Counted from the first letter of the stretch, positions 3,297-7,436 are shown. The stretch is DNA of 29,232 nucleotides from an uncultured Methanosarcinales archaeon (GCA_964501085.1 CAZCRM010000001.1:1-29232); one strand, 5' to 3'. Notes: generated by a model not told the origin, from the sequence alone. Program-made: numbers and translations.

Positions 3297-4118
3297 ATGC
3301 GACAAATAGCAATCTATGGAAAAGGTGGGATAGGCAAATCCACCACAACCCAAAACTTGAGTGCAGCGCTCTCAACGATGGGCAAGCGTGTAATGCAGAT
3401 TGGATGCGATCCAAAGGCGGATTCCACAAGGATGCTTGTAGGTGGAAAGAGGCAACCAACGGTGCTTGATACACTTCGAGAAGTAGGTACAGAGAATGTG
3501 ACGCTTGATGCCGTGGTGCACACAGGATTTGGTGGGATAAAATGCGTGGAGGCAGGAGGTCCTGAGCCAGGCATTGGGTGTGCAGGAAGAGGTGTAATCA
3601 CGGCAATAAATCTCTTAGAAGAACTCGGGGCATACGACGAAAGCTTAGACTTTGTGTTCTATGATGTGCTTGGTGATGTTGTCTGTGGTGGCTTTGCAAT
3701 GCCGATGCGGGAAGGTAAGGCACACGAGATATATATTGTGGCGTCAGGCGAGATGATGGCGCTTTATGCAGCAAACAACATCTGTAAAGGGATACGCAGA
3801 TTTGCAAAACAAAGTGGAATTCGTCTCGGCGGTATAATCTGCAACAGTAGGAATGTAGAGAATGAATTTGAGCTTCTAACAGCATTCTCAGAACGCATTG
3901 GAAGTCATTTAGTCCATTTCATACCTAGAGACAACATCGTGCAGAGAGCAGAGATAAACAAGAAAACTGTGATTGAGTATGCTCCTGATTCTAAGCAAGC
4001 AAAAGAGTATCTTAAGCTGGCAGAGAACATCATTGAAAACGATGAACTTACAGTTCCACACCCGCTTGCGTATGATGAACTTGAGCAGTTAATGATGGAA
4101 TTTGGAGTGTTAGAATGA
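3297..4118 (+). CDS. nifH: Nitrogenase iron protein
   Basis: GKGGIGKS P-loop, [22 protein letters not shown] and [14 protein letters not shown] with both [4Fe-4S] Cys ligands; 273 aa. Confidence 0.97.
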
Positions 4119-4432
4119 AGATGATAAGAGCAATTGTGAGACCTGAGAAGGTGGAAGAGGTGGTGGATAGCCTGGAAAAGAAAGGTTTTGCCGCTCTAAC
4201 CAAGATGGACGTATTTGGACGTGGTAAGCAGAAAGGAATTCAGGTAGGGTTAACAAAGTATGAGGAGCTTCCAAAGGTGATGCTGATGATAGTAGTAGAG
4301 GAGGCAGATGTGCAATCCGTGATAAATACGATTCAAGAGAGTGCAAGGACGGGTAGTTTTGGTGATGGCAAAATCTTCGTAAGTGAGGTTGAGGAGGCAT
4401 ATACAATACGAACAGGCGAGAGGGGACTCTGA
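4115..4432 (+). CDS. nifI1: P-II family nitrogen fixation regulator NifI1
   Basis: P-II motifs GRGKQKG and GDGKIFV; 105 aa; located between nifH and nifD. Confidence 0.92.
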
Positions 4433-4433
4433 A

Positions 4434-4793
4434 ATGAAGGAAATAATAGCAATAATCAGGATGAATGCAATTCAAAAAACTAAGCGCGCACTTGCTGATG
4501 CAGGCTTTCCTTCTTTGACGGTAAAGCGAGTATTTGGAAGAGGTAAGCAAAAAGGATTGCATCTCTTTCCTCCTACCAGCGTTAATCCAGAGGATAGAAA
4601 GGGTAATGGAATGAAGTATATACCAAAGAGGATGCTCACAATGGTTGTGCCTGACGAGAAGGTGGAGGAAATTATCAGGATAATCATGAAAACCAACAGA
4701 ACAGGAATGATAGGCGATGGGAAGATTTTTGTATGCCCTATCAAAGATGCCATCAGAATTAGAACAGGAGAACGAGGCGAGGAGGCGATTTGA
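4434..4793 (+). CDS. nifI2: P-II family nitrogen fixation regulator NifI2
   Basis: MKEIIAIIRMN start (ATG at 4434, not the ORF-track 4383), GRGKQKG, longer T-loop, GDGKIFV. Confidence 0.92.
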   Translation: MKEIIAIIRMNAIQKTKRALADAGFPSLTVKRVFGRGKQKGLHLFPPTSVNPEDRKGNGMKYIPKRMLTMVVPDEKVEEIIRIIMKTNRTGMIGDGKIFVCPIKDAIRIRTGERGEEAI

Positions 4794-6182
4794 ATGCCAT
4801 TTACCCTTTTAAAGTGTGATATACCTATACCAGAACGAAAGGAGCATACTTATATCAAACATTCAAGAGAAAACATTATACCAAAGTGCAATATTCAGAC
4901 CACACCAGGTGACTTCACAGAGCGAGGTTGCACGTATGCGGGTTGCATGGGTGTGGTAGGTGGTCCTGTCAAAGATGTGATTCATTTAGTGCATGGCCCA
5001 ATAGGATGCGCTTACTGGACATGGGGTGGAGGTACGAGGCAGAACTGGTCTGATAACCCAAGCTTTCATCGCAAATATTGCTTCTCCACTGATATGCAGG
5101 AGGATAACGTCATTTTCGGTGGTGAAGATAAGCTCTATAAAGCCATAATAGAGGCACACGAAGCATTCCCAGAGGCAAGAGGCGTATTCGTCTATGCAAC
5201 ATGTTCAATCGGGCTTATCGGTGATGATATAAAGGCGGTGTGCAAGCGTGCAGAGAAGGAGATAGGAATCAAGGTTGTTCCATTCAACTGCGAGGGATTT
5301 AGAGGGTGCAGTCAATCATTAGGGCATCATATCGCAAATGATACGCTTTTCGAATATGTTGTGGGCACAAAGGAGCCAGAATATACCACAGACTATGACA
5401 TGAACATCATTGGCGATTATAATATACAGGGCGATCTCTGGCTAATAAAATCACTATTTGAGCGCATGGGCATAAGAATACTTTGTACATTCACCGGAAA
5501 TGCTTCAATCGATGAAATCGCACAGGCACATCGTGCAAAACTTAACTTGATGCACTGCCAGCGTTCTACACCATATATCTGCAAACTCATGGAAAAAAAA
5601 TATGGGATTCCTTTCGTGAGAGCGTCAATGTTTGGAATAGAGCAAACCTCGAAGGCATTGAGAGATGTTGCAGCATTCTTCGGATTGGAGGAGAAAGCTG
5701 AGAAGATTATTAAAGAAGAGGTTTCAAAGGTTGTGCCTAAGATGGAAGAATATAAGAAAAAATTCAAAGGAAAGCGAGTTTTCATCTATCAGGGTGCGCC
5801 GCGCACATGGCACTGGGTAAGACTGTTTCGTGAATTAGGAATGGAAACGATAGCAGCGGCTACAACCTTCGGGCATGAGGAAGACTATGTACGTATTTGT
5901 GAACGTGTGAAGGATGGTACATTGGTCATAGACAATCCAAATGCGCTTGAACTTGAGGAGGTTTTGCTGGAATTAAAACCAGATCTGTTCATTTCCGGGC
6001 TTAAGGAAAAATATCTCTCTTACAAGCTTGGAATACCGTTCATAAACGGGCATTCTTACGAGAAGGGACCCTATGCAGTCTATTCAGGATTCCTGAACTT
6101 CGCAAGAGACATAGAGAAAGCGATGTTCGCTCCAGTATGGAAGATGATAAGGAGGGTAAGCAATGCGGAGCGTAACAATTAA
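4794..6182 (+). CDS. nifD: Nitrogenase catalytic component alpha subunit
   Basis: P-cluster Cys in RGCTYAG, HGPIGC and ATCSIGLIGDD; SQSLGHHIAN (Gln191/His195 equivalents); cofactor ligands HCQRS and NGHSY. Confidence 0.93.
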   Translation: MPFTLLKCDIPIPERKEHTYIKHSRENIIPKCNIQTTPGDFTERGCTYAGCMGVVGGPVKDVIHLVHGPIGCAYWTWGGGTRQNWSDNPSFHRKYCFSTDMQEDNVIFGGEDKLYKAIIEAHEAFPEARGVFVYATCSIGLIGDDIKAVCKRAEKEIGIKVVPFNCEGFRGCSQSLGHHIANDTLFEYVVGTKEPEYTTDYDMNIIGDYNIQGDLWLIKSLFERMGIRILCTFTGNASIDEIAQAHRAKLNLMHCQRSTPYICKLMEKKYGIPFVRASMFGIEQTSKALRDVAAFFGLEEKAEKIIKEEVSKVVPKMEEYKKKFKGKRVFIYQGAPRTWHWVRLFRELGMETIAAATTFGHEEDYVRICERVKDGTLVIDNPNALELEEVLLELKPDLFISGLKEKYLSYKLGIPFINGHSYEKGPYAVYSGFLNFARDIEKAMFAPVWKMIRRVSNAERNN

Positions 6183-7434
6183 TCCAGCAAAGATGTGCCA
6201 ACCTATAGGAGCGATATATGCTCTTTTAGGAATACATGCTTCGGTACCATTAGTTCATGGTTCTCAAGGTTGTGCTGCATATCCGATGCGAATGTTGAAT
6301 CGGCATTTCAAGGAGATGGTGCAGGTTGCGGTGAGTTCTCTTGGTGAGGATGCTGCGGTATTTGGGGGGAAGACGAATCTAATCACTTCGATAAGGAATA
6401 TAATTGCAAGAAGAAAGCCCGAGCTCATAGGTGTGATTACAACATGTCTCTCAGAGACCATAGGGGATGATATTGAAGGTATTATCAAAGAAGGTAATTT
6501 TGTGGAATCAAAGGTTATTGCTATCCACACGCCAAGCTATGTTGGTTCACATGTTACTGGGTATGACAACGCATTGAAGGCGCTCATAGGTCTTTCAGAG
6601 AAATCAGATGCTTCAAATGGTAAGCTGAATATCATTCCAGGCATGATTAACCCAGGGGATATCTATGAGGTGAAGCATATGCTTGATTTGATGGACATCT
6701 CCTATACCATTATAAGTGATGTTTCAGAGACGCTTGAGGTGCCTCTTATCCTGCCAAAACTACCTTTTCCTGAAGGTGGAACCTCTGTGAAGGAAATTAT
6801 GGAATGTGGTAATGCATGCGGTGTGATTGCACTGTGCGAGCATGCGGGTGGTTCTGCAGCCACGCTACTTGAGAAAAAATATGAGCTTGAGTATGATACC
6901 ATCTGCCCGATTGGGGTATCGAATACTGACCGATTCTTAGAGAGCATCACTGATATAATGGATGCAAAGATACCATATTCGCTTGAAAAGGAGCGTGGAA
7001 GGCTCATAGATGCGATGGTAGATGTGCATCAAACCACATACGGAAAACGTGCTGCGATATTCGCAGACCCAGATGTGGCAATTGCACTTGCAGAGTTCAT
7101 ATCTGAGTTAGGAATGGAAGTTGCCGTTATCTCAAGTAGCACAGCGAGCAGAAAGTTCGCACAGAAAGCAAAATCATTCACCAATAAGATTCTGAATGGA
7201 AGCGACTTATATGAATTGCATAATGCAGTGAGAAGTAATGAAGTGGATGTTCTGCTTGGGAATACTAAATGCAAGTCGATTGCGAAAGATGAAGGAATTG
7301 CGTTTGTGAGGTGCGGATTCCCCGTCTATGACAGGGTTGGATATCATAGGTATGGTATCATGGGATATCGTGGCGGGATATATCTCACGGACATGATAAC
7401 AAATGCAATACTGGAAATGGAAGACAAGAGGTAA
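6163..7434 (+). CDS. nifK: Nitrogenase catalytic component beta subunit
   Basis: NPAKMCQPIGA, HGSQGC, TTCLSETIGDD and TPSY (P-cluster Cys x3 plus Ser); overlaps nifD by 20 nt; 423 aa. Confidence 0.88.
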   Translation: MRSVTINPAKMCQPIGAIYALLGIHASVPLVHGSQGCAAYPMRMLNRHFKEMVQVAVSSLGEDAAVFGGKTNLITSIRNIIARRKPELIGVITTCLSETIGDDIEGIIKEGNFVESKVIAIHTPSYVGSHVTGYDNALKALIGLSEKSDASNGKLNIIPGMINPGDIYEVKHMLDLMDISYTIISDVSETLEVPLILPKLPFPEGGTSVKEIMECGNACGVIALCEHAGGSAATLLEKKYELEYDTICPIGVSNTDRFLESITDIMDAKIPYSLEKERGRLIDAMVDVHQTTYGKRAAIFADPDVAIALAEFISELGMEVAVISSSTASRKFAQKAKSFTNKILNGSDLYELHNAVRSNEVDVLLGNTKCKSIAKDEGIAFVRCGFPVYDRVGYHRYGIMGYRGGIYLTDMITNAILEMEDKR

Positions 7435-7436
7435 AT

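Follow-up and report, generated by a model that had tools for sequence, protein, structure and literature searches.

Nitrogenase (nif) loci of the methane seep type were reportedly first seen by Pernthaler in 2008 and Dekas in 2009. In anaerobic methanotrophic (ANME) archaea, every nif cluster of the "methane seep group" consists of nifH, nifI1, nifI2, nifD and nifK without nifE or nifN; the ligands of these enzymes are conserved, their nearest relatives come from Roseiflexus (Chadwick et al., 2022; PMC9012536), and ANME archaea with such clusters assimilate 15N2 (PMC9012536, citing Dekas 2009). A 2025 study of ANME-3 described the same layout, found nifEN replaced after nifK by three genes for an ABC transporter plus one for a conserved protein in every ANME locus except one, and showed that such a locus had moved laterally from ANME-2a into ANME-3 (PMC12180501). 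In Roseiflexus, the proteins NifH and NifB plus apo-NifDK were shown in 2024 to suffice for making iron-molybdenum cofactor (FeMo-co; PMC11573651), and the NifDK structure from M. infernus (9SPZ) contains a genuine FeMo-co with Mo and homocitrate (PMC13554218). Here we describe a locus of this kind in the longest contig of a metagenome-assembled genome (MAG) from an uncultured Methanosarcinales archaeon (GCA_964501085.1). The window, by which we mean the whole 29,232-nt stretch analysed (CAZCRM010000001.1:1-29232), carries at positions 3297-7434 a complete, translationally coupled nifH-nifI1-nifI2-nifD-nifK operon with all genes on the plus strand. The enzyme that it encodes is, with good probability, a molybdenum-type nitrogenase of the EN-less methane seep group known from ANME archaea.

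The nif operon and its enzyme class

The features of the locus are listed by window position.

3297-4118, plus strand: nifH, 273 aa; TIGR01287 461.6 bits against a cut-off of 394
4115-4432, plus strand: nifI1, P-II family switch-off regulator, 105 aa; PF00543 101.5 bits
4434-4793, plus strand: nifI2, another P-II family regulator, 119 aa when read from the ATG at 4434; PF00543 92.4 bits
4794-6182, plus strand: nifD, dinitrogenase alpha subunit of the seep-group type, 462 aa; TIGR01862 600 bits
6163-7434, plus strand: nifK, dinitrogenase beta subunit, 423 aa; PF00148 411.7 bits
7437-7799, minus strand: mptD (dihydroneopterin aldolase), PF04038; convergent with nifK across a 2-nt gap
3211-3296, plus strand: A/T-rich intergenic operon leader, 86 nt, with TATA-like TTTAAATATT and a strong Shine-Dalgarno sequence AAGGAGGTGA ahead of nifH

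Placement of the enzyme follows from a maximum-likelihood tree of the concatenated alpha and beta subunits (LG+C20, 62 rows, 899 columns, rooted on seven NifEN pairs), in which the window's NifDK falls within the seep group (24 rows, support 100/100) as the earliest branch of an ANME-1/Methanolliviera subclade of 12 rows (100/100). Eight canonical, EN-bearing DK pairs, from Rahnella, Clostridium butyricum, Nitratidesulfovibrio vulgaris and five Methanosarcinales genomes with D-K-E-N, make up a separate starred clade. This clade excludes the window, which belongs to the tree's other starred clade, and is sister to a clade of 47 rows containing the window together with the Chloroflexaceae loci. 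Besides the eight canonical rows the tree includes one Vnf row and no Anf row, the K genes of L100 and L101 being cut off; M. infernus and Roseiflexus are not among its rows, and several reference rows are long-branched. NifD is 81-85% identical to the proteins of ANME-1, Candidatus Methanolliviera and relatives, 72-75% to those of ANME-2a/2c and Argoarchaeum, 66-67% to those of two bacterial MAGs, 62-64% to those of Methanoperedens, and 54-60% to those of Bathyarchaeia and Chloroflexi, including Roseiflexus. NifH is 86-90% identical to that of ANME-1-type loci and 75-77% to that of Methanoperedens, and the nifI1 product is 80-83% identical to that of ANME-1-type loci.

The arrangement of the genes is that of the group. 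Across the 80 best related loci, the order H-I1-I2-D-K is found in all archaeal seep-group and Methanoperedens loci, and 79 have no E/N-like gene in the DNA covered downstream of nifK, a Clostridia MAG being the exception. With the seep group the window shares this order, the absence of nifE, nifN and a G subunit, conserved ligands, a short NifD (~460 aa), a short NifK, and a GG insertion before the equivalent of Arg96 in NifD that appears in all seep-group rows shown and in no other row. In the species-representative genome set, ~250 stretches encode NifD relatives with the signature peptides of this NifD's clade.

The five nif frames are all open, with tight translational coupling: nifH and nifI1 overlap by 4 nt, the nifH stop lying within ATGA; the nifI2 ATG stands 1 nt past the nifI1 stop; nifI2 and nifD abut with zero gap; and GGAGGG precedes the nifK ATG by 8 nt. 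A longer nifI2 starting from a GTG at 4383 is possible but unlikely; in that reading the P-II domain begins at residue 18. NifK is without the N-terminal extension typical of group I NifK. The reading frames bear out what a preliminary description of this stretch had stated, namely that nifD and nifK overlap by 20 nt, which leaves no room for vnfG or anfG, and that a convergent mptD lies 2 nt beyond the end of nifK, with nifE, nifN, nifX and nifB not following downstream.

As that description had also held, every P-cluster and cofactor ligand is present in NifD and NifK. In NifD, Cys46, Cys72 and Cys137 correspond to the P-cluster residues 62, 88 and 154 of A. vinelandii, and Cys255 and His420 to the FeMo-co ligands 275 and 442; the second shell is kept as well (Gly69/Val70, Gln191/His195, Ser278, Phe381 and Lys426 in A. 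vinelandii numbering). In NifK, the P-cluster residues Cys12, Cys37 and Cys95, together with Ser125, correspond to 70, 95, 153 and 188. NifH has the P-loop GKGGIGKS and its cluster cysteines in CAGRG and CGGF. NifD clears only the subfamily models TIGR01862 and TIGR01284 and scores below the nifD, vnfD, anfD and nifE equivalog cut-offs (527 bits against 654 for nifD, TIGR01282; 488 against 823 for VnfD; 444 against 874 for AnfD), and NifK scores below that for nifK (TIGR01286; 362 bits against 427). By a published rule (PMC3578447), Vnf/Anf enzymes have either His or Leu as residue 69, and their cofactor Cys is part of Cys-Ala-Arg-Ser; the window NifD has Gly-Val at 69/70 and Cys-Gln-Arg-Ser instead. 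McGlynn et al. considered Gly69 and Cys-Gln-Arg-Ser to be Mo-type marks and argued that such enzymes bind FeMo-co (PMC3578447). The enzyme would be expected to contain Mo and to reduce N2. The region around His442 has the shorter, V/Fe-like spacing.

Several other class assignments were tried and rejected. An alternative nitrogenase (Vnf/Anf) was set aside on the missing G subunit gene, the scores below the equivalog cut-offs and the Mo-type residues; a canonical Mo-nitrogenase (minimal nifHDKENB) on the scores, the lack of nifE/nifN and the position outside the canonical clade; and a group IV or nitrogenase-like (NFL) enzyme on the retention of all ligands and the presence of nifI1 and nifI2.

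The canonical methanogen operon of Methanosarcina and Methanococcus has the window's nifH-I1-I2-D-K order, P-II regulators and identical cluster ligands, but continues with nifE and nifN(-X) directly after nifK (L089-L093), and its NifD is ~530 aa long with an extra loop and Cys-His-Arg-Ser. The Methanoperedens-type nifHI1I2DK shares the gene order, the absence of EN and the host family with the window, whereas its DK falls into a clade of its own together with two bacterial MAGs, has no GG insertion, and is only 62-64% (NifD) and 49-52% (NifK) identical. The NifHBDK system of Roseiflexus sp. RS-1 (PMC11573651) is likewise of Mo type and devoid of nifEN; unlike the window's it is bacterial, has its nifB inside the cluster, and its NifD is ~54% identical. 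In the Chloroflexaceae loci, which are relatives of Roseiflexus, H and D are not separated by nifI1/nifI2, and the cofactor Cys stands in Cys-Ala-Arg-Ser. The closest solved structure is that of the M. infernus/FS406-22 nitrogenase (9SPZ; NifD 563 bits, NifK 385 bits), which is also archaeal, associated with NifI1/NifI2 and equipped with the same short His442 loop, although these hyperthermophilic methanogens keep nifE and are without nifN only (genetics in PMC8809328).

The layout is a published property of a known lineage and not new, and by itself it adds nothing beyond the publications on ANME archaea. The preliminary description had called EN-less nitrogenases rare and poorly characterized, a statement overtaken by the accounts of the ANME layout (PMC9012536, PMC12180501) and by the demonstration in vitro of EN-independent FeMo-co synthesis (PMC11573651). 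The modest novelty lies in which host carries the cassette, in a likely lateral origin, in reliance on a NifB native to that host, and in the absence of the transporter module.

Probable cofactor maturation without NifEN

The MAG searched measures 1.56 Mb in 222 contigs (median 5 kb) and is 93% complete. Throughout this genome, PF00148 identified only NifD, NifK and CfbD, with no second alpha/beta pair; CfbD lies next to CfbC on contig 99, and the two are the only NFL-type pair. A tblastn search of the genome with seven canonical NifE/NifN pairs returned nothing further, and no EN fragment at contig ends. VnfG/AnfG (PF03139) had no match in the genome even at E <= 1, and no NifX/NafY domain was found in it. 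A stand-alone NifB of 296 aa is encoded on contig 55 (G000:C55:929-1816), unlinked to the operon, and matches the solved stand-alone NifB structures 7JMA/7BI7 with 323 bits. The genome also encodes a ModA-like protein and WtpA, as well as four genes of the homocitrate/isopropylmalate synthase family; because none of the four scores above the cut-off of the curated nifV model, the source of homocitrate can only be inferred.

This pattern extends beyond the single genome. Of 24 genomes from this family, 19 have a lone DK pair without EN, including several that are 99% complete, and the two genomes G151 and G153, which have closely related nif clusters, contain D, K and CfbD as their only PF00148 genes. 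The preliminary description had left two routes open, nifEN elsewhere in the genome or maturation of the cofactor on DK itself. The first finds no support, since neither nifE nor nifN was detected by PF00148 or tblastn in the genome, and DK does not nest among ordinary Mo-nitrogenases; the second holds up as the best reading, by analogy with Roseiflexus.

Because the genome is without NifEN, NifX and a G subunit, the cofactor would most likely be finished on NifDK itself, and we regard completion of FeMo-co there, with NifH and NifB, as somewhat favored. The unlinked NifB would make the [8Fe-9S-C] precursor, which could enter apo-NifDK directly, and NifH would then help to insert Mo and homocitrate in place. 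Mo may be supplied by the ModA-like or WtpA-like binding proteins and homocitrate by one of the four homocitrate/isopropylmalate synthase family genes. The components of a Roseiflexus-type maturation are encoded, namely NifH, NifDK, the contig 55 NifB, Mo-binding proteins and homocitrate-synthase-family genes.

In the finished enzyme, the NifH dimer would pass electrons, with ATP hydrolysis, to the NifD2K2 tetramer, where they would move via the P-cluster to FeMo-co in NifD, the site of N2 reduction. NifI1 and NifI2 would bind NifDK and switch the enzyme off when fixed nitrogen is plentiful. Control of NifDK by these two proteins is reportedly known from work on M. maripaludis. A bioRxiv preprint (10.64898/2025.12.07.692841) describes sequestering of NifDK by NifI1/NifI2 under nitrogen sufficiency, and by analogy the same switch may act on the window's NifDK.

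The window locus is barer than its relatives. Most seep loci continue after nifK with an NMT1-type binding protein, a permease and an ABC ATPase, all absent from the window, and the closest locus, L018, additionally has an amidotransferase-like gene and a homocitrate synthase after nifK, which the window also lacks. Close orthologues of the transporter, amidotransferase and homocitrate synthase genes at L018 12992-17253 were not found anywhere in the genome, where the best transporter matches are 28-44% identical. The ABC-transporter module is an accessory trait and not part of the enzyme. The accessory set of Bathyarchaeia differs from that of the seep group: their EN-less loci (L073-L086) have a homocitrate-synthase-like gene ~50 nt after nifK and no nifI1/nifI2 between H and D. 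Separately, several ANME-1 and Methanolliviera loci contain, ~500 nt past nifK, a free-standing frame of ~109 aa that is absent from the window (L009:5584-5910, L010:3385-3708, L014:6980-7297, L019:11232-11555). It corresponds to the C-terminal quarter of NifK (PF00148 positions 300-398) and is 69-74% identical to the window NifK.

Host family and origin of the cassette

Kinship assigns the host to the same family as a genus that comprises 45 species or more, and the host is a relative of Methanoperedens within the Methanoperedenaceae. The genome encodes McrA, and among the products of the window are multihaem cytochromes, NrfCD and a Rieske/cytochrome b module. The proteasome ATPase PAN, encoded on the same contig as nif, is 76-81% identical to that of the family and 59-71% to that of other Methanosarcinales, and only 49-53% to PAN of the genomes with the nearest nif clusters. 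NifD displays the opposite pattern (62-64% to Methanoperedens against 81-85% to the ANME-1 type), and all five nif proteins are far closer to the genomes with the nearest nif clusters than to Methanoperedens. The artA-psd-pssA-mptD operon that adjoins nifK is syntenic in six family genomes, in none of which nif stands beside it. An approximately unbiased (AU) test rejected a clade of the window with Methanoperedens DK (p 7e-35), a clade chosen after seeing the tree.

With NifB, the resemblance is to the host. Its identity is 75-82% with NifB of the family and only 48-51% with that of ANME-1-type genomes; judged by these values, it is native to the host family and did not move with the cassette. 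A role for NifB in methanogens, as a requirement for the L-clusters of the MCR activation complex, has been proposed (PMC12176620), and the distribution and host-like identity of NifB fit that proposal. Two genomes in which CfbD is the only PF00148 gene also encode NifB (G005:C69:12065-12958 and G021:C91:14781-15668), in line with NifB acting independently of nitrogenase in archaea that have MCR.

Because a cassette of the ANME-1/Methanoliparia type adjoins an operon conserved in the family, and because NifB is of the host-family type, we consider that the cassette was probably acquired laterally, as an ANME-1/Methanoliparia subtype in a Methanoperedenaceae host. It would then run on housekeeping functions already present in methane-metabolizing archaea. 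Base composition was considered as a sign of transfer and rejected as too weak (cluster GC 43.7% against 40.7% for the genome, with GC at third codon positions slightly higher). At least three nitrogenase types occur in the family: the Methanoperedens-type DK (19/24), the canonical DKEN of G002 and G013, and the window's seep/ANME-1-type DK. Since G002 and G013 carry canonical D-K-E-N (at G002:C176:1896-7484 and G013:C24:11351-16894; loci L092, L093) in place of a lone DK, the nitrogenase type seems to have been exchanged several times within the family.

It is conceivable, and we offer this tentatively, that a small-genome member of the Methanoperedenaceae living in a microbial mat took only the five nif genes of the ANME-1/Methanoliparia seep subtype, leaving behind the transporter and homocitrate-synthase genes found with them elsewhere, and that they work as a plug-in cassette on housekeeping functions of MCR-bearing archaea. 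The host would already have NifB for the L-clusters of the MCR activation complex, would obtain homocitrate through its coenzyme B pathway, and would possess uptake of Mo/W. If true, an EN-less DK would be a plug-in nitrogenase, which would explain its ready movement among methane-metabolizing archaea.

The contig itself appears sound. The stretch was found in two microbial-mat metagenome runs from two samples, and the Logan contigs built independently from these runs span the nifK/mptD junction with no mismatches (X1, 6464-7985; X2, 6895-7526), with even depth over the cluster and its flanks. In the region between the ADP-ribosylhydrolase gene and nifH, Logan strain variants occur at 3172-3233, including a 1-nt deletion at 3225, without a break. 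In run X1, the start of nifI1 is attached at 4154 to 255 unrelated letters in a single Logan contig; because of this junction and the variant contigs in the leader, the mat appears to contain a second strain or a differently arranged relative. A chimeric contig is unlikely.

Other observations concern the surroundings of the operon. A pncB (nicotinate phosphoribosyltransferase)-phosphoribosyltransferase-ADP-ribosylglycohydrolase operon (265-3210, plus strand) ends 86 nt before nifH; this operon upstream and mptD downstream are the window's own neighbors, unlike those of seep loci. The ADP-ribosylglycohydrolase scores 94 bits against the DraG equivalog cut-off of 337. None of the 80 related loci has a homologue beside nifH, so that the adjacency seems to be a peculiarity of this genome, and the gene was rejected as part of the nif system. 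The 86-nt leader may contain the nifH promoter, an assignment made by reading the sequence. The NrpR-type operator GGAA-N6-TTCC has zero matches across the whole window, and a scan for sigma-70 promoters and terminators, models not applicable to archaea, gave signal at shuffle level. Further along, positions 10138-17848 contain two divergent sets of multihaem c-type cytochrome genes, one with NrfC/NrfD and the other with a Rieske protein and split cytochrome b, which are typical of Methanoperedenaceae respiration, and 18033-21925 (minus strand) contains radical SAM/SPASM, DUF763, class V aminotransferase (cysteine desulfurase-like) and DsrE-family genes in a row. Elsewhere in the family, some Methanoperedens carry a second, divergent NifB (45-47% identical) beside a nitrogenase-like alpha/beta pair (G008:C1:7508-11152, G003:C109:1784-5055, G099:C57:93396-94202); the pair scores ~250 bits to PF00148 and is 24-28% identical to the window D/K, and the arrangement suggests an NFL system provided with a NifB of its own.

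Alternative explanations and implications

Two of the alternatives question the data. The genes nifE and nifN could lie in the ~7% of the genome missing from the assembly or the bin, with canonical cofactor assembly; the fragmentation of the MAG (222 contigs, median 5 kb, 93% complete) and the canonical D-K-E-N of the family members G002 and G013 speak for it. However, EN in G002 and G013 comes immediately after a DK of canonical type, whereas the window's nifK meets mptD after 2 nt; near-complete family genomes with a lone DK are also without EN, G151 and G153 have D, K and CfbD only, contig ends hold no EN fragment, and absence of EN is the rule of the clade (PMC9012536), so that we find this explanation very improbable. 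We give hardly any credence to the idea that the nif cluster came from another, ANME-1-like organism through an error of assembly or binning. Such an origin would account for five nif proteins that are 75-90% identical to ANME-1-type loci and 50-77% to the host family, for the cluster GC of 43.7% against 40.7%, and for the Logan contig with a loose end at 4154; it is contradicted by the nifK/mptD junction, bridged without mismatch in two runs from two samples, by the even depth over cluster and flanks, by the family-syntenic operon on the right flank, by the family-like PAN on the same contig (76-81%), and by the window DK, which branches off first in its subclade and does not closely copy any ANME-1 sequence.

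The remaining alternatives accept the locus and interpret it differently. It may not encode a working Mo-nitrogenase, being instead a silent recent acquisition or an enzyme with another cofactor (L-cluster-type or Fe-only-like) or a substrate other than N2, as in NFL enzymes. Known from DNA runs only, with NifD at 527 bits against a cut-off of 654, NifK below the nifK cut-off, V/Fe-like spacing at the shorter His442 region and the accessory transporter of other seep loci missing, the operon gives this view some substance. Nevertheless, we judge it unlikely: the five frames are open and tightly coupled, every cluster ligand is kept, and NFL enzymes lack these ligands, Gly69 and Cys-Gln-Arg-Ser are present as marks of the Mo type (PMC3578447), the dedicated regulators NifI1/NifI2 are retained, the short His442 loop recurs in M. 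infernus NifD, whose structure contains Mo and homocitrate (PMC13554218), and ANME archaea with seep-group nif take up 15N2 (PMC9012536, citing Dekas 2009). Finally, there may have been no transfer, if an ancestor possessed several EN-less nif lineages that were differentially lost (ancient paralogy). Vertical descent with losses is one possibility that Chadwick et al. consider for the seep group (PMC9012536); within the one family there are three kinds of nitrogenase, and mobile-element genes are absent beside the cluster. Against this stand the reversal of identities between host markers and nif genes, a genomic location unlike that in every relative examined, a NifB that tracks the host family and not the cassette, and the published precedent of such a locus transferred laterally into ANME-3 (PMC12180501); ancient paralogy thus seems to us rather improbable.

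Some points nonetheless count against a seep-group Mo-nitrogenase matured on NifDK and acquired by transfer. The absence of genes is not provable from one MAG that is 93% complete with 222 contigs of median 5 kb, and the runs containing the stretch, as found by run search, are of DNA only, so the operon is known from DNA alone. The Roseiflexus NifD is only ~54% identical and belongs to a different subclade (the Chloroflexaceae rows), which makes the maturation mechanism one by analogy. NifB occurs in all 25 family genomes, two of them without NifDK, and so is not specific support for a working nitrogenase. The clade rejected by the AU test was named only after the tree had been seen, and the cassette might be impaired if the missing ABC-transporter module is needed.

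In summary, the seep-group reading extends the range of this nitrogenase type to the Methanoperedenaceae and to the microbial mat habitat, and rules for genome-based recognition of diazotrophy that require nifE/nifN would miss this organism. The locus bears on the minimal gene set for engineered nitrogen fixation. It would offer a clean natural example of five genes traveling between methane-metabolizing archaea for N2 fixation, with NifB and accessory functions provided by the host.

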